Below are positions 27,987 through 55,623 of a stretch of DNA of 64,000 nucleotides, piece after piece. The translations under genes and the position numbers were made by a program. The DNA is from a virus: the IMG/VR virus record IMGVR_UViG_3300031885_000010, positions 2,440 to 66,439 of that record; one strand, 5' to 3'. The notes under the pieces were generated by a model, which made no database searches, was not told the origin of the DNA, and saw only the letters and a program-made list of their open reading frames with translations. Numbering within the stretch: position 1 is the first letter of the stretch; each line of letters begins with the position of its first letter.

Positions 27987-28469
27987 TTATGCCGGATAAA
28001 TAGTATCCGTATCATTTGTCGTATTCACATTCAAATCTAAAAGCTTGGCAAATACGTCAATGACAACCGTGTTGGCAGCCCCTACTGACTTAGCAATAAT
28101 GTCAATGGTTCCTGCAACCTCAAAGAACTTACCTTGACTGGCAGCCGTACCTGAAGTTGAGGATATATATGCATATTTCCCTGCAGTAGTAGCAAGCGAT
28201 GCAGACGTAATCAGTCTTGCACTTGATACGGGAGTCTTAGCCCGAATTGTCATCACGGTACTCGAAATATTACTCTTCGTGACAATCCTGTATGCCACTC
28301 TCTCAACATATGCTCCTGCCGGAATATTCATAATTCTGTAAACGGTGCTTCCTACAAGAGGCTTAGCCGTTGTTGCAGTTACCCTTTGATGAATCCAAGT
28401 AGACTTATCCTTTCCATCCCAAGGGAACCCTGCACTTCCTACCGCAATGTTTGCTGAAGTTGTTGCCAT
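27987..28469 (-). CDS. Putative capsid decoration/cement protein
   Basis: IPAGAYV motif; immediately after major capsid. Confidence 0.65.
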   Translation of the reverse strand: MATTSANIAVGSAGFPWDGKDKSTWIHQRVTATTAKPLVGSTVYRIMNIPAGAYVERVAYRIVTKSNISSTVMTIRAKTPVSSARLITSASLATTAGKYAYISSTSGTAASQGKFFEVAGTIDIIAKSVGAANTVVIDVFAKLLDLNVNTTNDTDTIYPA

Positions 28470-28495
28470 AAGTAATCTACCTCCTTATTACAGAA

Positions 28496-28520
28496 TCCTC
28501 CGGCCATTAAGAAGCCGGAG
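28496..28520 (-). terminator. Hairpin after major capsid gene
   Basis: CCTCCGGC...GCCGGAGG inverted repeat. Confidence 0.5.
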
Positions 28521-28529
28521 GGTTAGTGA

Positions 28530-30781
28530 TTATGTGAAAACTACAGTAGCATAGATTCTGCCGACTGCCACAGGCTTAATCATCTCATACCCATACACGT
28601 GCAGGGATTTGATGTGCTTCCCAAATGTGGATTCCGGCTTATCTATATAATCTGTCTCTACGAACTGAGATGCATAGGTGATACCATATGGGTGTCCGAA
28701 AATGATATCCCAGCACAACTGACCCGTAGTAGAATCAGTATAGGATGGAAGTAGGTTGGAGGCATAAAGAGTAAAGTTACCCAACCGTCCCAGTCTCCCA
28801 CTTCTTAATGTTGACTGGTTATCTCCCATCATGGATGCATCCTTTACATCGGAGTTCCTGAGCAATACTGCTGCTGCTTCCGGCATAACGATGAACCATC
28901 CACCCTGTGGCACGTTCTGTTCACCCAGTACCCCACCAGCCATGAGAATATATTTGACCATATTGGCGCTGGTGAGTTCCACGGGTGCGCCTGATGCACC
29001 AATATTATAGAGTCCTGAGACTCTTCCTGCTGCAATGCCGACATTATGCGAATCACACTTCGCAGCGATCCATGCTAATACTTCCGTATCCCTGTCGATC
29101 TTCTCATTCTCGATAGCATCCTCTGCCCACTGATTCATAAGGTCAATGTCGGACTGATACTTATCAATATCATCAATCCCGAATCTGGCATAGGCTGCCT
29201 TGTCAATGAGAAGCTGAATATATGGAGATTCAACCCTGTCCACAGCTTGCAATTGCATACCCTTCTGATAGGTATGCCACGGAACTGTACCACGGGTTCT
29301 GATCCAGACGGTATCACCTTGGGCCTTAATCGACCCTTCATACGCTATGTTATCCTTGAGGCTCTTTATCCCCAAGTTCTTGCGGTTTATTTTCCACGCA
29401 AGGCCGGACTATCTCATCACCCTTATAAAAACTACCATCCTTTTTCTTAGATTTTCTACCATCACGAAATCTTGAAACTTCCCTGTAATACTTTCGTGAA
29501 TAGCATCTAACGCAAAGTCCTTTCCTACGAATATCGTAGATTGAAGCAGAGCATTTAGAACAGTAGGCTAAGGGTGCTCGGTGCTCGTGCAAACCAAGAT
29601 TTGCCACATGTGCAATTTTATACATCATTGATGGAATAATATATGGCTGGATAAGCCCAACAAACTCCCGACTATTTTGGGTATTAGCTTCAATCAGCCA
29701 TTGTTTACCTTCGGAAACTTGTTTCATAAATCTCAGATTAAATGTGATTCCATATTCATCCTGAAAATACTTTTGGATTATATGAATCTCATCCTCATTA
29801 CACATTGTAGCAATGTTAGTAGCAACAGAGGAAATCCATCCTTCTTTATTTCTATTTACTCTCGCATTCCCATCATCCATATACCAGATTGCTATTCCTT
29901 CTGGAGTTAACATCCTTAATACTCTTTCAGAAAAGGTCTTAACTCCATTAGGATATAACCATTCTCTTATTTGCTTGAAATATGGATTAGACACGGAGAA
30001 CGCACAATATCTATATTTTTTCTTTGGACCATGCATTCCAAATGTTACTGAGAAGTTTCCACCCAAATGTTTCTTTATCAACCCAGCCTTGTGTTCACAA
30101 TAGTCAAGTTGAGAAACTGAGTGAAGAATTCTCATCTCTGAACTTACATAGCCATTATATCCATTATGTCTATAACGGACATTCAGATATGAATCACCCA
30201 AACACATCCCAATCAGAATTCCCCTTGTCTCTACTTTCATCTTGCCTCCATCAGGGCATGAAGCCCAGGAGAATTAATCTTAGCTTGTAGTCTCTGAACC
30301 TTCTCCTTACGGAGCTTGGCTGCGGATAACCATTTCAGGCTTCCCCGCAATTCGCCGAGTTTTACACGAACTATGTGGCTAATTCGTGTTACTGATGTGA
30401 GTTATTACTGTTGCCGTTTCTGTTATCACTGAGGCTCTTTATCCTCAGTATCTTACGGTTCATTTCCTGTAAGACCGGACTATATCATCACCCCATAGGG
30501 TGTCGGGCACTCGTGTGGGGATTATTCTTTCGTCACCCCTTAGTCTCTGAACCTTCCGCATCCCTTGAGTTTCCTCTACATATGCGACTTGGCTGCTGAT
30601 TGGCATTTCAGCGTTCCAGCAATTCACCCGATTCACAGTGTCAAATTTCTCTGACATGGGACTGCAACATTTAGCAATCATACCACTTTTCAACCAGCTT
30701 CGTACTCCATATTTGAGGTATGAAGGCGCTGGTTCCTGCTGAACTATAATCGGGATACCCCGATACTCTTGCGACTGCCAT
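28530..30781 (-). CDS. Major capsid protein, spliced: join(complement 30677-30781, 30382-30414, 28530-29342), 316 aa
   Basis: AAGGAGG RBS; exons join in frame to MAVARVSGYPDYSSAGTSAFIPQIWSTKLVEKWYD|ATVITHISNTN|YEGSIKAQGDTVWIR, a P22-coat-like N-terminus. Confidence 0.9.
29343..30381 (-). mobile_element. Group I intron 2 (1039 nt) with LAGLIDADG ORF
   Basis: Exon ends in U; P1 ACACGAAT/GTTCGTGT; P10 CATA/TATG; GTTCAGAGACTA and GAGATAGTCC core; terminal G. Confidence 0.92.
29350..30240 (-). CDS. Intron-encoded LAGLIDADG homing endonuclease with C-terminal CxxC...CxxC extension
   Basis: LIGMCLGDS and IAIWYMDDG motifs; IIPSMMYK. Confidence 0.92.
   Translation of the reverse strand: MKVETRGILIGMCLGDSYLNVRYRHNGYNGYVSSEMRILHSVSQLDYCEHKAGLIKKHLGGNFSVTFGMHGPKKKYRYCAFSVSNPYFKQIREWLYPNGVKTFSERVLRMLTPEGIAIWYMDDGNARVNRNKEGWISSVATNIATMCNEDEIHIIQKYFQDEYGITFNLRFMKQVSEGKQWLIEANTQNSREFVGLIQPYIIPSMMYKIAHVANLGLHEHRAPLAYCSKCSASIYDIRRKGLCVRCYSRKYYREVSRFRDGRKSKKKDGSFYKGDEIVRPCVENKPQELGDKEPQG
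30415..30676 (-). mobile_element. Group I intron 1 (262 nt, ORF-less)
   Basis: Exon ends GAU; IGS TGTTGCAGTC pairs with both exons; AATTGCTGGAA...AATCAGCAGCCAAG, GTTCAGAGACTA, GATATAGTCC; terminal G. Confidence 0.9.
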
Positions 30782-30864
30782 AAGATGTTACCTCCTTAAT
30801 GATTAATGCACTAACCATATTGGTTAATGTTTATTGCTTAACCATTAAGGATAATCCCTAATGG

Positions 30865-31944
30865 TTAAGGTTGCACACGGCTTCCTACACTGATAATCTT
30901 GCGGAGAGTAGCATCACGCTTAACGTATTCATCCTGCGTACCCTTCCACAATCCACAATTCTTCAGTTGAGACATGCTGGTTAATTCCTTAATTGCCTCG
31001 GCTACCGTCATCTTGGCTGGAGGTGCAGTGGAGACTGGAGGTCCATCACTTCTATTCGGTGCCACCTTACTTGCCAGCTTATCCTGAACAGCAGCCGGAT
31101 TGCCTACAGGTGGAACCACAGATGGTTTCTTTTTCCCTGTTGCAATATCCAGAAACTTTATTACTCTTCCCAAATCCCGTCTGTCAAAAGCATCCTTGAT
31201 AATGGCATACTTTGAGATTCCGGTAAGTGGGTCTTCTTCGTTGACGAATGCCTGAAATTCTGGACTGGCCTTAATTGTTACCCAATCAGAGTACTCCCTA
31301 TTGAAATCCGCCCAGAATCTCTGTTCTGCGGTTTGAGCAAACTTAGCATCTACCTTACCTACTTCCTGAACAATAGTCTGATTTGCCTGCTTCTGAGCAC
31401 GTTCCAATGCAAGATTATAGACTCGTTCTTGGCTTCCTAAAAGAGCCTCAAAAGCTTCAGGAACCATGTTATCCTTAAGCGTCTTGAATTCAGGCATCTC
31501 CATAAGAACTTCCCGTACAGGCTTCTCTGGAACCTCTGTCTTAACAGGCGGTGTCTCCTTAATCTCAGTAAGTCTCAGTACCTGTTCCGTCAGAAAGTTG
31601 ACCTGTCTCTGTAATTCAGCAGGTTCCTTATCATACTTACCCTTGAGGCTACTGTATTCCTGCTGAAGCCTATCGAACTCCTCTTGAGTGTAGGTCTTTG
31701 GTGCAGGAGACTCAACTGGCGGTTCCACTACAGGTTCCACAGGCGGTTCCACGAGTGGTTCTATAGGTGGCTCTACCGGAGGTGTTACTGCAACAACCGG
31801 AGGAGGCTCTATAATAGACTCCACAGGTGGTGCCGGAGGCGGAGTACCCGCTTCCTTAGCCTTCTGCCTGTCAATGATGAATTGGTCAGCTTTCTTCACT
31901 CTACTCTTAATGTCCAATGGCAAATCAGTGTACTTATCACTCAT
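30865..31944 (-). CDS. Capsid scaffolding protein
   Basis: Pro-rich N-terminus, YSSLKGKY coiled coil, directly upstream of capsid; AAGGAGG RBS. Confidence 0.8.
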   Translation of the reverse strand: MSDKYTDLPLDIKSRVKKADQFIIDRQKAKEAGTPPPAPPVESIIEPPPVVAVTPPVEPPIEPLVEPPVEPVVEPPVESPAPKTYTQEEFDRLQQEYSSLKGKYDKEPAELQRQVNFLTEQVLRLTEIKETPPVKTEVPEKPVREVLMEMPEFKTLKDNMVPEAFEALLGSQERVYNLALERAQKQANQTIVQEVGKVDAKFAQTAEQRFWADFNREYSDWVTIKASPEFQAFVNEEDPLTGISKYAIIKDAFDRRDLGRVIKFLDIATGKKKPSVVPPVGNPAAVQDKLASKVAPNRSDGPPVSTAPPAKMTVAEAIKELTSMSQLKNCGLWKGTQDEYVKRDATLRKIISVGSRVQP

Positions 31945-32058
31945 AATATCCTCCTTGTGAGCGCCATACGGAATCAATGTTCCATGGTCTGCTCAATGTA
32001 TTAGATTTCCTACCGCCGCCATTACGTGGTCTGGTAGAATGGTGGCCAATCAAACTAC

Positions 32059-32806: not shown

Positions 32807-33283
32807 TCAACCTCCAGTCTGAATATTATTTAGTTTGGCAAAATCCCCATAATATAATTTAGCCGCTTCATTATAGGCTAATGCTGCATCATCCCTTTGG
32901 ATGAATACGCCGAGATGAATCGACTTATTTTCTACACTAATTCCAGATTCCCACTTTTTAAGTCGGGGATACCACCAAACACCTTTATAACCAGATGTAT
33001 TCCCTTTCTGTATTCTACGATTTCGGTTATTATCAAGGGGTCTACATACTCTCATATTCTCACGAATGCAGTTCAAACCATTTCCATCTTTATGGTCAAC
33101 TTCCATTTTGATAGAAGGTTGCATTAAAAAGCGATGAAGATAAACGAGATGATTCTCAATTTGTGCTCTTGCATACCATATTTTTTTAATACATACAGCG
33201 CACCATTTATATTTAGAAACAGCATCAAAATCTTCGTCATCAATGATTGCAACCTTGTTTTGAGAAAGAAAAATCTCTTTCAT
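32807..33283 (-). CDS. HNH-AP2 endonuclease
   Basis: VDHKDGNGLNCIRENMR; NTSGYKGV; AALAYNEAAKLYYGDFAKLN. Confidence 0.93.
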   Translation of the reverse strand: MKEIFLSQNKVAIIDDEDFDAVSKYKWCAVCIKKIWYARAQIENHLVYLHRFLMQPSIKMEVDHKDGNGLNCIRENMRVCRPLDNNRNRRIQKGNTSGYKGVWWYPRLKKWESGISVENKSIHLGVFIQRDDAALAYNEAAKLYYGDFAKLNNIQTGG

Positions 33284-35776: not shown

Positions 35777-37846
35777 TTATTGCATAGACGGTCCTGTAGG
35801 AACCATTCTATTAGCCGTTCCCTGCACGGGATTGCCTGCTGCATCTACCTGTGGTGCACCTGCCGGTGGAGGCACAGCCCCCTGCATCGGTAAGGGATTG
35901 AGTTGATCCTCCGGCACCAACTTACTGGCATCCAGATGCATACTCTTAGCCGATTCCTTCAGCCCATACTTTAATCCTTCACGTCCCATAAGTTCCTGAA
36001 ACACTGGGATAGTACCAGCATTACGCAGGAAGTCATTGAGTCGGAGTGCCTGTTGTTCTCTGAGCATAAGCCATGCTGAACCCTTAGCCTGTATTTTCGT
36101 ATCTCCGATGTATTCCAATGTTTCATCAAGATTGTAGTTCTCATAGTATTGAGCCTTGATTAAAGGTATGATGATATTGGTATCAACAGTAAATGCTACT
36201 TCCCTAATTCCACGATTCTGCTGACCCATGAACATGGAAAGGCCCGATGCAGTATTGCCAGCTCCTGACACGTTGGGATCTCCATGCGCATATCCGGCAA
36301 TCCCACAGTGTTCATCAGCAATCTTGGAGGCATCATGATAAGCACTAAGGAGTTCAGAAGCATGCATTTGTGCTTGGAAAAACTGCATGAAGGGTTCAGT
36401 CTGGGAAGAGAATGCATTCTTAACAAACTTCCAAATCTTCCATGGCCATATTTTGGTTACATCTTGTCCAGGTGCAAGAGATTCAGTATCAAATGCCACC
36501 TGTGGTCCACTTGCTAATGCTATATTATTCTGTAATGCCCTAATAGCTGAGTTAGCTAATGACTGTGCATCAGGAATTGTTTCCGGCAATCCCCTTCCCC
36601 AAAAAGAATTCTTCTCCTCCACATAGGAGGCTTTATAATAAGGTTTTAGGCCGAGTGGATTATCATTAAGCCTGACTGCTAATATCCATCTATCAATGAG
36701 CCATGTCTGGACACGGTACACCAAGTCTGGATCAATCTTAACTCCAAAAAGGGTCTCTCCCTGATCCTCACTTTCTCCTGCCCAGCTAAGAAGCAATCTT
36801 CCTTCTACGGCATCATGGTACTCCAAGCATTCTATCTTATCCCAGGTATAATACTGAGACGACTCTCTACCTTCTGCCTCGATGCGTTCCTGCTCATCCC
36901 AAGTCCATTCATGCCAACCTCTATCGGTGAAAGTACGAAGGATCTCTCGAATCGCCACTTCATCGAAGCCAGGAAGCTCGATCATATCTTGCAGATCGGT
37001 ACGGGTAAAGAATAGACGTTCTATGATTCCTGTATCATTAATATTAGTGGCCCCTGGAAGCGGGAACATATCGAAGGGAGATGGAGAATCCCAGGTAGGA
37101 ATGGTCTCATCCTTCACCTTTACTTTCCCACGTCCATCTGCACTCTCCTCAATATCCATGGCTTTCTTCTTACGGTAGATAGGCCCCTTTATGAATCCAG
37201 CCTTGAGATCCACAATATCCATTAGACATGATGCTAATGCTTCGTAGAATCCTCCCTCTACCAGCTGATCCTCTATCTTAGCCGCCATCATCTCGGACTT
37301 ATCTTTAGCAATGTCCATGATAATAGCCTTATACTGATCCTTAAATTTAGGAAGAGCTTGCATCATGGACTGCTGGATGGCTGATGGGTCTAAACCGGAT
37401 GCGATTACCTGTTGCATGAATTTGTTGACTTCGGCCATAAAGGTGATTTCAGCAAGCCTTTCGTTTTGTGGACTGAGAGATGGAAGAGGAGTTGGCTCGA
37501 TGGAGTATGGGCGCTCGCCTGATTGGAAGTAAACTTCCTTGAGCATAGCCTTAGCAGTTCTGGATTTTACATCTGTTATCATCATGAACAGGTCGGAGCC
37601 AAGTTGTTTAATATCGGCTAATTTGGCTGGCTCATACTCTCCACGGATCTGGAGAAGGTTGGCAATCATCTGATTATGGAACTTTATCTTTTCGAGTTTG
37701 GCCTTCTCCCATGCGGTACGGACATGACCTGAGAGTTGGTTCACCATCATATCTGATGGCGTATCTCCCTTGGCCTTCATCTCACGATCTGCCTTGGCCT
37801 TGGCTTCCTCTTCTAATTTGAGTTGATCGTTGCCTATAAGTTGCAT
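35777..37846 (-). CDS. Portal protein (P22-like podophage type)
   Basis: 689 aa; SPFDMFP, FWGRGL, NIALASGPQV, TASGLSM; after terminase. Confidence 0.9.
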   Translation of the reverse strand: MQLIGNDQLKLEEEAKAKADREMKAKGDTPSDMMVNQLSGHVRTAWEKAKLEKIKFHNQMIANLLQIRGEYEPAKLADIKQLGSDLFMMITDVKSRTAKAMLKEVYFQSGERPYSIEPTPLPSLSPQNERLAEITFMAEVNKFMQQVIASGLDPSAIQQSMMQALPKFKDQYKAIIMDIAKDKSEMMAAKIEDQLVEGGFYEALASCLMDIVDLKAGFIKGPIYRKKKAMDIEESADGRGKVKVKDETIPTWDSPSPFDMFPLPGATNINDTGIIERLFFTRTDLQDMIELPGFDEVAIREILRTFTDRGWHEWTWDEQERIEAEGRESSQYYTWDKIECLEYHDAVEGRLLLSWAGESEDQGETLFGVKIDPDLVYRVQTWLIDRWILAVRLNDNPLGLKPYYKASYVEEKNSFWGRGLPETIPDAQSLANSAIRALQNNIALASGPQVAFDTESLAPGQDVTKIWPWKIWKFVKNAFSSQTEPFMQFFQAQMHASELLSAYHDASKIADEHCGIAGYAHGDPNVSGAGNTASGLSMFMGQQNRGIREVAFTVDTNIIIPLIKAQYYENYNLDETLEYIGDTKIQAKGSAWLMLREQQALRLNDFLRNAGTIPVFQELMGREGLKYGLKESAKSMHLDASKLVPEDQLNPLPMQGAVPPPAGAPQVDAAGNPVQGTANRMVPTGPSMQ

Positions 37847-40301: not shown

Positions 40302-42326
40302 TTACAATAATTCAGGAAATAATAAATCAACTTGGTACTGCCTTGCCATACATTCATAATTAAAGCTGTGCCTGAAATGGTCTTCCCCCAGCTTTTTATA
40401 CACATATCTCTTAGCCCCAGTGGGCTTCCCATCTTTATCCTTTTCTTCAATTAGCTCCTTACCAGCATTATGAAGTTGTTCTGCAAACTTCTTCATAAGA
40501 TCACAATCCTTGGGAAAAGTGATATTCCCCTCTTGTACCTCGTAATGGGACGCATCGAGACTCTCGGTACGATTGCATAGAACCATCATCTTCTCTTCAT
40601 CCCAGATGTAATCTCCCTTCTGGCGCTCTCTGTAGAAATTCAGGAATACTCTGCCCTTATGTTTCGTTGCAAATGCACGGGCATTACGGGTTTCCGGCTG
40701 GAGGTCACACACACAGCGATTAACATGAAATTTCTCCATTAGTGTATTAAGTTCGCTCCAATCCTTATAAATTCCAATATGGACTATCTTTCCTGCTTTC
40801 TCCAGCACTCGTTTCCCTATTGTTACATGAAGCGAGTGTGACATCTGATCTACACCCATAGTGCATGGCCCAGGATCAGAATCGGCTATTCCATCATCCC
40901 TGCACAGATCAAGTACTTCCCTAACAGTAAGTCTATTCTCTGCTTCGACAAAGGCTGATCCTATAGTAAGGTTATAGAACTGTTTAATATTAGATGTAGT
41001 GTTATATTCATCCAATATTTCTTGTGGAGATACAAACCAACTCCATAACTGGCTGTAGTGTCTGCCTCTAATATTAGTAATGGCCGGACGTTTGGCCACC
41101 CATTCACCTACCGATGGATTCAACTCGGCATCTCTACACGACTGGCATAGTCTCACCACTCCTCCATCCCATTCCACAATACACTCAGGGAATGTATCTT
41201 CCATGCAGGTGTATTTATTGCACTTGGGACATTTCAATAACCAGTATCTCATGTCACTGCGCTGAAATTGCTTGTTTATGCCATAGTCAGGAAGAGTAGG
41301 ATTAGAGAGCATGGCTATTTCTTTAAACTGAGAATGTGATAATCTTTTTAATGCCATCGCCATTCGATCTTCAGTTGCTTCATCCAATTCATCGAATATA
41401 ATGTAATCCCCAGGAGCACTTTTGACACCAATAGCACTATTCATTCCACGGAAAAGAAGGAATGTATTCCAGAGACGTTTAACAGTAGTATTGTTTGTTT
41501 CCTGTATCCAATTGCCTATTGTGTCTGGATTTTCTTCAATAAGGGGAGCAATACGAGTTCTACTGAAGTCTATAACGTCTGTCTTGGATGGAAAATAATA
41601 AAGAATATTCCTATATTTCCTAAATCTGGCTCGATGTATTACCCTACACATTTCCATAGAAGTAATACACATCTGCGTTGCTTTTTCATTTACAGTAAAC
41701 GGATGATCCTCAGTATAAGGTTCTATTAAGTATTCATGCTTTCTAAATGTTAATGGTTCACCATCAAGGATGATGGCATTCTTTTCTACCCACTCCTTGA
41801 GTGAAGGAACAGTTTCCCGAATCCCAAGTGGTATGGCTTCTCCAGTATCAAGGGCTACCCGTTTCGCTTCTACATCAGCCAATGATGCCACAAGGGGAGT
41901 CTGTTTCGCACTCCCACGCCTTCCCCTTCTTGGTTGTGGTTCGGCAATCTGTGTCCTAAATATTAGTCTTGGCCGATCAGAGAATAGAGCTTCTTTATCA
42001 ATGTTGTGAAGCCCTAATTGTTTATTGAGTCTGGATTTAAAATTATAGTAACTATTAATGTTAATATTAAATCGTTTGGCAATCTCTGCCCCTCTAACAC
42101 CCTTAGCAGATAGTTTTCGGATTGCTGTCTTCTCCTCACGGGTAAGAGGAGAACGGTGAGGCATACCAGGTCTGCCCCCTCCGCCAAAAAACCTGTGTCC
42201 CTTGGCTGCACCTCTTCTAAATGCAGGCTCACCTTCAGGTTCACTCTCAGACTCTAAGGCGGGAGTATCAGTCTCTAAGGCAGGAGTGTCTTCTAAAGTA
42301 GAAGTATCTATTGCAGCTTCCATCAA
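40302..42326 (-). CDS. Terminase large subunit (lambda GpA-like) with N-terminal HTH extension
   Basis: KATQMCIT Walker-A-like, IFDELDE Walker B, LSNPT, CPKC...CQSC, MGVD nuclease motif. Confidence 0.9.
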   Translation of the reverse strand: MMEAAIDTSTLEDTPALETDTPALESESEPEGEPAFRRGAAKGHRFFGGGGRPGMPHRSPLTREEKTAIRKLSAKGVRGAEIAKRFNININSYYNFKSRLNKQLGLHNIDKEALFSDRPRLIFRTQIAEPQPRRGRRGSAKQTPLVASLADVEAKRVALDTGEAIPLGIRETVPSLKEWVEKNAIILDGEPLTFRKHEYLIEPYTEDHPFTVNEKATQMCITSMEMCRVIHRARFRKYRNILYYFPSKTDVIDFSRTRIAPLIEENPDTIGNWIQETNNTTVKRLWNTFLLFRGMNSAIGVKSAPGDYIIFDELDEATEDRMAMALKRLSHSQFKEIAMLSNPTLPDYGINKQFQRSDMRYWLLKCPKCNKYTCMEDTFPECIVEWDGGVVRLCQSCRDAELNPSVGEWVAKRPAITNIRGRHYSQLWSWFVSPQEILDEYNTTSNIKQFYNLTIGSAFVEAENRLTVREVLDLCRDDGIADSDPGPCTMGVDQMSHSLHVTIGKRVLEKAGKIVHIGIYKDWSELNTLMEKFHVNRCVCDLQPETRNARAFATKHKGRVFLNFYRERQKGDYIWDEEKMMVLCNRTESLDASHYEVQEGNITFPKDCDLMKKFAEQLHNAGKELIEEKDKDGKPTGAKRYVYKKLGEDHFRHSFNYECMARQYQVDLLFPELL

Positions 42327-53346: not shown

Positions 53347-53424
53347 CGGGGAGTAAGTCAGCGGCAGACGGCACGGCTTGGGACCGTGCAGTTCGGAGGT
53401 TCGAGTCCTCTCTCCTCGATACCA
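53347..53424 (+). tRNA. tRNA-Pro(UGG)
   Basis: CGGGGAG acceptor, anticodon arm CACGG-CTTGGGA-CCGTG, T arm GGAGG-TTCGAGT-CCTCT. Confidence 0.88.
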
Positions 53425-54408: not shown

Positions 54409-55623
54409 ATGGAAGCAACTGCGGTCATTGGTATGAATTATGGCGATGAAGGAAAAGGACATATCACAAATTATCTTTCCGATTCAAATACACTTAACAT
54501 CCGATTTAACGGAGGTGCCCAAGCATCTCACGCTGTTTTTCTTTCTGATGGCCGCAGTCACCTCTTCCATCATTTTGGGTCAGGTTCTCTTCAGGGAGCA
54601 AGAACACTTTTGGCAAGTCATTTTATTGTGAACCCAATTATTTTTGCTTGGGAGATGCAGGAACTTATAGAAAAAGCCCCCATGCGTGAGGTTTTTATTG
54701 ATCCAAGATGCCGAGTTACTACTCCTTACGATATGTTTATTAATGAATTTTCTGCCAAATTTCATGGAAAAAAAGATACTGTGGGAATTGGAATAAATGA
54801 GACTGTTGAGCGTAGTACCTTTAGGCAACTCAAAATTAATATGCGAGACTTTGTTGAAAAGAGTAATGACGAAATTACATCTATACTGAGAACTATTGAA
54901 AATGAATATATGCCCTTTCGTATAAAACAATTAAATATTCCATGGAGTGATTTTGTAAAGCATTATTCTGATAGTATTAAAAAATCGGTTGAATCATTCT
55001 TAAAGATTAGAACATGGATGACCGACCACATGATTGTAATATGGCCCGATGATGGCGTGATAGACAAATTTCTTGCCAAAGATAAGGATCGCCGTATTGT
55101 TTTTGAGGGTGGACAAGGAATGCTTCTTGACCAAAATAGAAAAGAGTTTATGCCATATCTCACTCGATCCAATACAGGAATCTTAAATATTTTGGAACTC
55201 CTGAAGACTATTAAGACAACATTGGATTTTAAGGTTTATCTTGTAACCCGAACATATCTAACTCGACATGGAGATGGACCAATATGGAACCATATCCCAA
55301 ATACTTTCCCATTTCCAAATATAGAAGAATCCACCAATCCAGATCATACATTCCAGGGGAAAATGCGCTACGGTCATCTCAATAAAAAATGGTACGATGA
55401 AGCAATTGAGGAAACCGAGACGATTATAGAGAACAACATGCCTTCTTGTATAAGCAATATAGAAATAAGTATTGCTATGACCTGTCTTGATCATCTCGGT
55501 AGCGAGTTCTCCTATTCTTTAGATGGAGATGGAAACATTGTTAAGGGAGATATATTTGATCTTCCAAGAATTAAATTGGTATCGAGCGGAAAAACAGAAA
55601 GAAATATTACACAATCTAAATGA
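54409..55623 (+). CDS. Divergent adenylosuccinate synthetase (PurA-like)
   Basis: GDEGKG, RFNGGAQASH, FEGGQGMLLD, TRTYLTRHGDGP, TCLDH. Confidence 0.88.
   Translation: MEATAVIGMNYGDEGKGHITNYLSDSNTLNIRFNGGAQASHAVFLSDGRSHLFHHFGSGSLQGARTLLASHFIVNPIIFAWEMQELIEKAPMREVFIDPRCRVTTPYDMFINEFSAKFHGKKDTVGIGINETVERSTFRQLKINMRDFVEKSNDEITSILRTIENEYMPFRIKQLNIPWSDFVKHYSDSIKKSVESFLKIRTWMTDHMIVIWPDDGVIDKFLAKDKDRRIVFEGGQGMLLDQNRKEFMPYLTRSNTGILNILELLKTIKTTLDFKVYLVTRTYLTRHGDGPIWNHIPNTFPFPNIEESTNPDHTFQGKMRYGHLNKKWYDEAIEETETIIENNMPSCISNIEISIAMTCLDHLGSEFSYSLDGDGNIVKGDIFDLPRIKLVSSGKTERNITQSK

Follow-up and report, generated by a model that had tools for sequence, protein, structure and literature searches.

Group I introns in major capsid genes have already been published for crAss-like phages (Yutin et al., 2021, Nat Commun, PMC7886860), where a capsid gene of the Zeta group falls into five pieces and so provides a precedent for several introns in one capsid gene. 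Here we describe a further case in a stretch of 64,000 nucleotides (the window), which comprises bases 2440–66439 of the 66,439-base IMG/VR virus record IMGVR_UViG_3300031885_000010 (completeness estimate 85%); the major capsid gene of this phage is divided by two group I introns that lie on either side of an exon of only 11 codons. As in the crAss-like phages, where some of the introns carry LAGLIDADG open reading frames (ORFs), the host is an uncultured tailed phage and the interrupted gene encodes the major capsid protein. Unlike the crAss-like cases, the window stems from a sediment phage of about 66 kilobases (kb) that belongs to another lineage and has another capsid family, with a Rhizobium phage as nearest match (36%). 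The crAss-like introns were recognized mainly by protein domains, whereas the present case is resolved down to ribozyme structures, exact junctions and the 11-codon exon. An earlier reading of the window made from its letters alone (the original prediction) had placed phage group I introns mostly in DNA-metabolism, terminase and lysin genes; the rarity of capsid-gene introns that this implied is outdated, both by Yutin et al. (2021) and by our motif scan of IMG/VR.

Two other groups of phages offer parallels. [quoted passage not shown] The window likewise holds an essential late gene of an uncultured phage split by several small group I introns; the Jug-phage genes (terL, nrdD) and the phage group differ, and in our case splicing is predicted from sequence. 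For phage Twort, a three-intron gene with exon skipping is cited in Edgell et al. (2011, PMC3073962). The window resembles what is cited there in that one phage gene holds several similar group I introns, and differs from it in that skipping is disfavored by the conservation of the small exon.

The intron pair also recalls the introns of the T4 td, nrdB and nrdD type, which we take to be of subgroup IA2: intron 1 has an additional hairpin between P7 and P3', both introns place an in-frame stop shortly after the 5' splice site, and the endonuclease ORF of intron 2 reaches into the core. In contrast to these, the host gene is structural and does not belong to nucleotide metabolism, the endonuclease is of the LAGLIDADG and not the GIY-YIG or HNH type, and the ORF overlaps a much larger share of the core (from P3' to P9.1). 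Splicing of a capsid gene has reportedly been seen in Faustovirus as well.

A literature search that left supplements and subscription papers outside found no phage capsid gene described as having a micro-exon between paired group I introns, which is a weak absence; within the same limits, no description was found of a bias of this intron family toward structural genes. Capsid-gene introns did not appear in the searched text of papers on Lactobacillus, Certrevirus and S. thermophilus phages, the text of a paper on Bastillevirinae introns lacked the word 'capsid', and the supplements of the crAss-like, Jug-phage and Bastillevirinae papers may contain further capsid cases. Both group I introns in capsid genes and phage genes with several introns are already established, and the picture of group I intron function is unchanged. 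What goes beyond the ordinary is an 11-codon exon shared by two paralogous ribozymes, the nearly complete overlap of an ORF with the 3' half of a ribozyme, and five insertion sites within 50 codons that are associated with different endonucleases.

Exon Structure and Splice Junctions of the Split Capsid Gene

The major capsid gene lies on the minus strand inside the late-gene block. Its parts are given below in window coordinates, with lengths in nucleotides (nt) or amino acids (aa).

30791..30797, minus strand: Shine-Dalgarno sequence AAGGAGG, 9 nt 5' of the capsid ATG (direct reading)
30677..30781, minus strand: capsid exon 1, 35 codons, ATG at 30781
30415..30676, minus strand: intron 1, 262 nt, group I, without ORF (RF00028 and helix check)
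30660..30669, minus strand: internal guide sequence of intron 1, UGUUGC-A-GUC (helix check)
30382..30414, minus strand: capsid exon 2, 33 nt, 11 codons, ATVITHISNTN
29343..30381, minus strand: intron 2, 1039 nt, group I (partial RF00028 match, helix check and homology to intron 1)
30364..30375, minus strand: internal guide sequence of intron 2, CAUA + GUUCGUGU (helix check)
29350..30240, minus strand: LAGLIDADG homing-endonuclease ORF, 296 aa (PF03161, phrog_11023 and I-SceI matches)
28530..29342, minus strand: capsid exon 3, 270 codons and stop (phrog_267 and homologues)

The original prediction had given these exons and introns with their lengths (35 aa, 262 nt, 11 aa, 1039 nt and 270 aa), and the values proved exact on the minus strand. 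It had also asked for an alignment to intronless homologues. Joining the three exons by their coordinates in a script yielded a protein of 316 aa (35 + 11 + 270), which aligned to its closest full-length homologue, the intronless P0002 (316 aa), over 316 columns without a gap and with 280 of 316 residues identical; the exons are thus 89% identical to an intronless allele and their frame is undamaged. Six more full-length homologues were likewise gap-free over both junctions. As a shift of either splice site by one base would alter the encoded residues, the junctions are fixed; the predicted junctions are the only ones that give P0002 without a gap, and removal of both introns would restore the frame of the intronless alleles. 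The intron state of P0002–P0006 (79–89% identical) was read from protein lengths and N-termini only.

Searching with exon 3 identified 92 homologous protein clusters, 64 of which contain the N-terminal part of the protein and 28 of which lack it. In the alignment of the 92 clusters the segment encoded by exon 2 is ungapped in all 64 homologues that bear the N-terminus, and residues I42, N44 and T45 are conserved at 95–98%. A lack of the ATV...SNT segment in intronless homologues had been named beforehand as a finding that would speak against the split gene, and the segment is present in 64 of 64. The anatomy of the locus, the homology, the exact junctions and the intronless alleles are direct observations. 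When exon 3 alone served as query, no relative was found in viral contigs, and genome contigs gave one distant match (27%).

Identity of the Interrupted Gene

The split gene is the major capsid gene, as had been proposed, and its product has the HK97 fold. Exon 3 matched the PHROG family phrog_267 ('major head protein', 1.7e-38) from profile position 68 onward, enough space remaining ahead of it for the 46 residues that exons 1 and 2 encode. With tblastn, 82 phage records were matched, all below 60% identity, the best being Rhizobium phages annotated 'major capsid protein' (36%, 9e-46); at E 0.01, exon 3 had no Pfam match. An AlphaFold2 model of P0002, built with 49 aligned homologues, reached a mean predicted local distance difference test score (pLDDT) of 75.8 and a predicted template modeling score of 0.67, with a pLDDT of 55–70 over the first 60 residues. 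This model matches solved HK97-fold capsids, and the best match was Mycobacterium phage Che8 (8e16_A, E 9.4e-20, template modeling scores 0.69/0.79).

Structure of Intron 1

Both inserts had been called group I introns, with a U-G pair in P1, P10 and P7 pairings and a terminal G, and a check with Infernal and group I intron models had been proposed. For intron 1 this check was positive: it matched the Rfam model RF00028 (curated cut-off 50 bits) over its full length (positions 1–253) with 69.9 bits, at 30691..30456 (E 1.1e-15 in the 64-kb window). The model ends at P9, and intron 1 extends 41 nt more via another hairpin to its terminal G at 30415. Complementarity scored by script was complete in every helix (P1 6/6, P10 6/6, P2 5/5, P3 6/6, P4 5/5, P6 6/6, P7 5/5, P8 5/5, P9 5/5 and P9.1 6/6 pairs), and an unconstrained fold returned P2, P3, P4, P6, P8, P9 and P9.1. 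Intron 1 thus combines a score above the cut-off with the U·G pair in P1, the terminal G with P10, and the core helices of a group I intron. Its P1 is formed by the last three nt of exon 1 (GAU) and three intron nt, paired with the 3' part of the guide, and in P10 the 5' part of the guide pairs with the first six nt of exon 2. In both introns, the U at exon position −1 faces a G in P1. The frame of exon 1 reaches a stop at the second intron codon (UGC UAA) and that of exon 2 at the first codon of intron 2 (UAG), so that the predicted stops within two codons of the 5' splice sites were found in both.

Subgroup IA, to which the T4-like phage introns belong, is distinguished by extra helices P7.1/P7.2 between P7 and P3'. 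At this position, intron 1 bears a single hairpin (GGGG/CCCC, 4/4 pairs) and intron 2 an ORF insertion; the model compared was the general RF00028.

Structure of Intron 2 and Its Endonuclease Reading Frame

Intron 2 on its own remained below the cut-off: the match to RF00028 was partial (model positions 57–150, 32.4 bits, at 30352..30286, E 4.6e-6 in a 1.6-kb search) and spans the region from the P3' side of J3/4 through P7. The partial score is explained by the endonuclease ORF, which fills and overlaps the core. The helices were therefore assigned by hand, guided by alignments to intron 1, and their complementarity was scored by script. All pairs were complementary in P1 (8/8), P10 (4/4), P3 (5/5), P4 (6/6), P6 (4/4), P7 (5/5), P8 (7/7) and P9.1 (7/7), and P9 (CUUGCG/CGCAAG) was complete by eye (6/6). 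P1 uses the last eight nt of exon 2 and P10 the first four nt of exon 3. The 5' part of the core (P1, P3, P4, P6 and the 5' strand of P7) occupies 30389..30288. Its 3' part comprises P3' at 29581..29577, P8 at 29576..29570 with 29424..29418, and P7' at 29411..29407, followed at the 3' end by P9 and P9.1 and the terminal G at 29343. The P3-P4-P6-P7-P8 core with P7 and P3 interlocked is fully complementary in both introns. The assignment of both inserts to group I therefore stood, for intron 1 by the full-length model match and for intron 2 by the partial match together with hand pairing.

The 296-aa ORF matched PF03161 (LAGLIDADG_2) over residues 6–193 with 84.3 bits (1.2e-23, cut-off 25 bits), the LAGLIDADG homing endonucleases of phrog_11023 at 5.2e-19 and, among solved structures, I-SceI chains at 1.1e-8. 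The main part of the ORF is placed between P7 and P3', where intron 1 has its small hairpin; the frame then continues across P3', P8, P7', P9 and P9.1, and its stop stands 7 nt before the 3' splice site. Within this frame, the P8 loop of about 145 nt encodes a CxxC..CxxC stretch. Overlap of an ORF with the intron core is known and functional in other introns (Edgell et al., 2011, PMC3073962). The overlap in intron 2 is extensive and takes in nearly the whole 3' half of the ribozyme. A hairpin that could hide the ribosome-binding site of the endonuclease (30228–30287) was tried as a candidate and rejected, its stability being that of shuffled sequences (z −0.21; 70 of 200 shuffles as good).

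Kinship of the Two Introns

In a MAFFT alignment of five sequences, introns 1 and 2 shared 70% identity over the 3' part and 66% over the 5' part, compared with at most 64% and 58%, respectively, against three introns of related capsid genes. On sequence grounds the two are to be regarded as paralogues of one family, whose divergence is far from that of a recent duplication. Two identical blocks had been noted as shared, and both were found in both introns. The block GGATAAAGAGCCTCA forms the loop and the 3' strand of the last hairpin. Across the five introns all 30 of 30 cells of this hairpin stem are paired, three of the six pairs change on both sides, and none of 500 shuffles matched the covariation score. 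The shared block is therefore a conserved structural element of the intron family and no coincidence.

Proposed Splicing and Mobility, and Alternative Explanations

We consider it likely, at a probability of about 85%, that the HK97-fold capsid gene of this uncultured phage of about 66 kb needs the loss of two paralogous group I introns, of which intron 2 is mobile and intron 1 is co-converted with it. The 2.25-kb precursor would lose both introns to give an mRNA of 316 codons. Each ribozyme would be guided separately, the ends of exon 2 being shared out between them, the first 6 nt going to P10 of intron 1 and the last 8 nt to P1 of intron 2; as these guide targets do not overlap within the 33-nt exon, both ribozymes can be expected to fold and splice independently. 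By analogy with T4 introns, the in-frame stops one to two codons into the introns would release ribosomes ahead of the ribozyme cores. The LAGLIDADG endonuclease of intron 2 would cut intronless capsid alleles, repair would copy the intron in, and the ORF-less intron 1, only 33 nt away, would be carried along by co-conversion. A distance of 33 nt falls within the usual range of co-conversion during homing.

Several points weigh against this reading. Self-splicing, like the activity and target of the endonuclease and the co-conversion, is what we infer from the structures and matches. Intron 2 as a whole remains under the Rfam cut-off (32.4 vs. 50 bits), and the placing of its P3', P8, P7' and P9 strands relied on hand assignment and on the homology with intron 1. 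Its ORF places about 700 nt between P7 and P3' and about 145 nt within the P8 loop, and with such insertions folding could be slower or splicing could require a protein. In intron 1, P1 contains just three exon bases and the guide has one unpaired A between its P1 and P10 parts. Finally, the margin by which the two introns are each other's nearest relatives is modest and comes from five sequences.

The alternative that survives best is that one of the introns, most likely intron 2, splices poorly, either needing the LAGLIDADG protein or a host factor as maturase or leaving the capsid gene dead in a defective phage. The partial model match of intron 2 and the large insertions, with an ORF running across the P3', P8, P7' and P9 strands, would agree with this. 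However, all core helices are still complementary, the endonuclease ORF and the three capsid exons are all open, the exons share 89% identity with an intronless homologue and keep their frame intact, the same arrangement occurs with zero differences in other runs, and overlap of ORF and core is functional in the other introns described in the paper cited above. We therefore consider poor splicing unlikely.

Less probable still is programmed exon skipping, in which a capsid variant of 305 aa without the 11 residues of exon 2 would be made beside the 316-aa protein, as in the Twort gene cited in Edgell et al. (2011, PMC3073962). The 33 nt of exon 2 do preserve the frame on skipping, as had been pointed out in the original prediction, and the 3' ends of both introns are similar. 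Against this, all 64 homologues that bear the N-terminus have the 11 residues, which belong to the N-terminal arm and are highly conserved, and this makes a functional skipped product unlikely. The P10 part of the intron 1 guide is moreover complementary to exon 2 and not to exon 3, and the guide of intron 2 pairs with just about 3 nt of the end of exon 1 (both by eye).

An assembly chimera or sequencing artefact, conceivable for a contig assembled from a metagenome, deserves hardly any credence, because independent zero-difference contigs from two further runs span exon 2 and the border between intron 2 and exon 3, and because P0001, a cluster 98% identical, begins with the translated tail of intron 2. 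Exon 2 and both its intron flanks are bridged by X2 record 14 (30294–30444) and X3 record 20 (30330–30592), and the intron 2/exon 3 border together with exon 2 by X2 records 13 and 14 and X3 record 20, all with zero differences; altogether, the split arrangement is present in contigs of three runs with three study codes. Among the contigs of the sediment and groundwater runs compared, no intronless joint was found at either site, and the only joints were two skips within exon 3 in one divergent X2 contig; gaps in the coverage of X2–X4 carry no weight either way. A megablast search of positions 28000–32000 against the phage collection gave no close DNA relative.

Introns in Related Capsid Genes

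The spliced protein was compared by tblastn with 162 related loci (L001, L004–L083 and L084–L164). In the first 81 loci, 80 matches were continuous, seven of them starting only at residue 20–22, and one was split (L005); in the second 81, 72 were single matches, six were split and three started at the contig end. Closer inspection added L107 as well as L124, whose exon 1 was detected upstream with a weak E of 0.12. Nine of the 162 loci are thus interrupted, at two sites, and the two sites of the window were free of introns in the fetched loci.

An intron after codon 49 (YEG/EIK) is found in L005, L098 and L123, with RF00028 scores of 46.2, 34.6 and 44.8 bits, respectively, all under the cut-off. 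The introns of this site contain HNH_3 ORFs antisense to both the capsid gene and the ribozyme (L005 3296–3922, L098 3329–3883 and L123 3248–3931, locus minus strand), two of the three with an N-terminal helix-turn-helix. In L123 (3051–3075 and 3985–4000), the 5' splice site, placed by eye through homology with L098 and L005, follows a C and the guide base is A; a C-A pair would thus replace the U·G wobble, and by eye no 3' junction was seen in this locus that pairs the terminal G with U at −1.

An insert after codon 22 (FIP/EIW) is present in L084, L101, L107, L117, L124 and L138. RF00028 scored 35.3 bits in L138 and 27.7 bits in L107; for the inserts of L084, L101, L117 and L124 no Rfam match was found at E 0.01, and these four were provisionally called introns from P1 and P7-like motifs seen by eye and from weak LAGLIDADG_1 matches. 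The five codon-22 inserts scanned, all but that of L107, contain sense-strand ORFs, with weak LAGLIDADG matches in four and none in L117.

With L196 and L238, which were added by a motif scan and carry an intron after codon 47, this capsid family has insertion sites after codons 22, 35, 46, 47 and 49, all within its first 50 codons. The guide sequences of the introns in L098, L196 and L084 fit their own exons by eye. Among the loci examined, the codon-35 site of intron 1 is occupied in this window alone. The predicted proteins of P0001 (98% identical), P0031 (56%) and P0066 (40%) start with an in-frame tail of the intron 2 type just before YEG, which indicates that the codon-46 site is used in other lineages. 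P0004, P0005 and P0050 begin with M-EIK, which would fit an intron ending in NNG after codon 49.

Gene callers return the capsid gene of the window as a fragment of 281 aa (P0001; ORF 28530..29375), and at least some of the 28 clusters without the N-terminus are truncated through intron splitting. Phage classification based on capsid genes and protein clustering consequently lose or shorten intron-split genes. The 2.25-kb locus itself is a compact test case for the co-conversion of an ORF-less intron, for how a ribozyme folds when an ORF crosses its core and for the competition of introns at neighboring sites.

The Intron Family in Other Viral Contigs

The exact motif GGATAAAGAGCC-N3-8-GATAAC was found in at least 117 stretches of IMG/VR. 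Eighty of these loci were fetched (L165–L244), and in 66 of the 80 an open frame of 60 codons or more follows immediately downstream. A PHROG scan of the 66 placed eight in phrog_1328, seven in phrog_267 and five in phrog_9953, all of them major head protein families, and at least nine matched tape-measure families; about 20 of the 66 thus lie in major head genes, counted from memberships that the tool did not de-duplicate. Ten of ten representatives picked by eye matched a single head-protein PHROG, with a fourth family, phrog_1357, among them. The RF00028 cut-off was reached in 11 of the 19 head-gene motif loci scanned, and in L169, L181 and L214 what matches is another intron, which has no ORF and lies about 1 kb upstream of the motif. 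Capsid-gene introns are common in environmental phages.

In L169 (2097–3369; L181 and L214 are alike), a head gene of phrog_1357, an ORF-less intron at 2097–2336 (97.8 bits) is followed by an exon of about 135 nt and by a second intron of about 0.9 kb, which encodes a 225-aa ORF with a LAGLIDADG-like motif (by eye) and ends in the same hairpin-GAUAAC motif. With junctions placed by eye, an unrelated head-protein family likewise seems to have a two-intron gene. By eye, the motif was also seen upstream of Hsp70-like ORFs (L183, L195, L229 and L243) and of a RIIA-like ORF (L166).

In four of four sediment or groundwater runs, many short contigs match just 30288–30347 and 30586–30634 of the window and then diverge. 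These matches to the ribozyme cores only are consistent with many further introns of the same family in those communities.

A broader and much more speculative reading, to which we give less than even odds, is that the intron pair behaves as one mobile unit and that the family marked by the AUAAAGAG-loop hairpin and GAUAAC specializes in phage structural genes (major head and tape-measure). Codons 1–50 of the capsid gene might then be a battleground with at least five sites and different endonucleases (sense LAGLIDADG, antisense HNH or none), on which introns 3–9 nt apart would destroy each other's targets, and intron 1 could be a relocated ribozyme of the intron 2 type that is kept by co-conversion.

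Genomic Setting and Other Features of the Window

A gene for a 370-aa protein sits immediately upstream of the capsid gene. Two further genes of the late-gene block were assigned by their PHROG matches:

40302–42326: large terminase (phrog_675, 2.1e-94)
35777–37846: 689-aa protein (match to phrog_332, 'head-tail adaptor')

A free-standing HNH endonuclease gene (32807–33283, minus strand; phrog_99, 4.7e-32) is situated among the head genes, some 2 kb upstream of the capsid gene. On the other side, an 8-bp GC-rich inverted repeat (CCTCCGGC ... GCCGGAGG, 28497–28521) begins 9 nt past the capsid stop and precedes the ribosome-binding site of the next gene; by eye, it lacks a clear U-run. Farther away, a tRNA gene was identified at 53347–53419 on the plus strand (RF00005, 48.8 bits). 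A 404-aa ORF at 54409–55623 (plus strand) matches phrog_1211, '2-aminooxy adenylosuccinate synthetase', at 4.6e-50, a family that we take to be the PurZ-type enzyme of phages in whose DNA 2-aminoadenine stands in place of adenine. If this ORF is of the PurZ type, homing endonucleases would face modified DNA in this phage.

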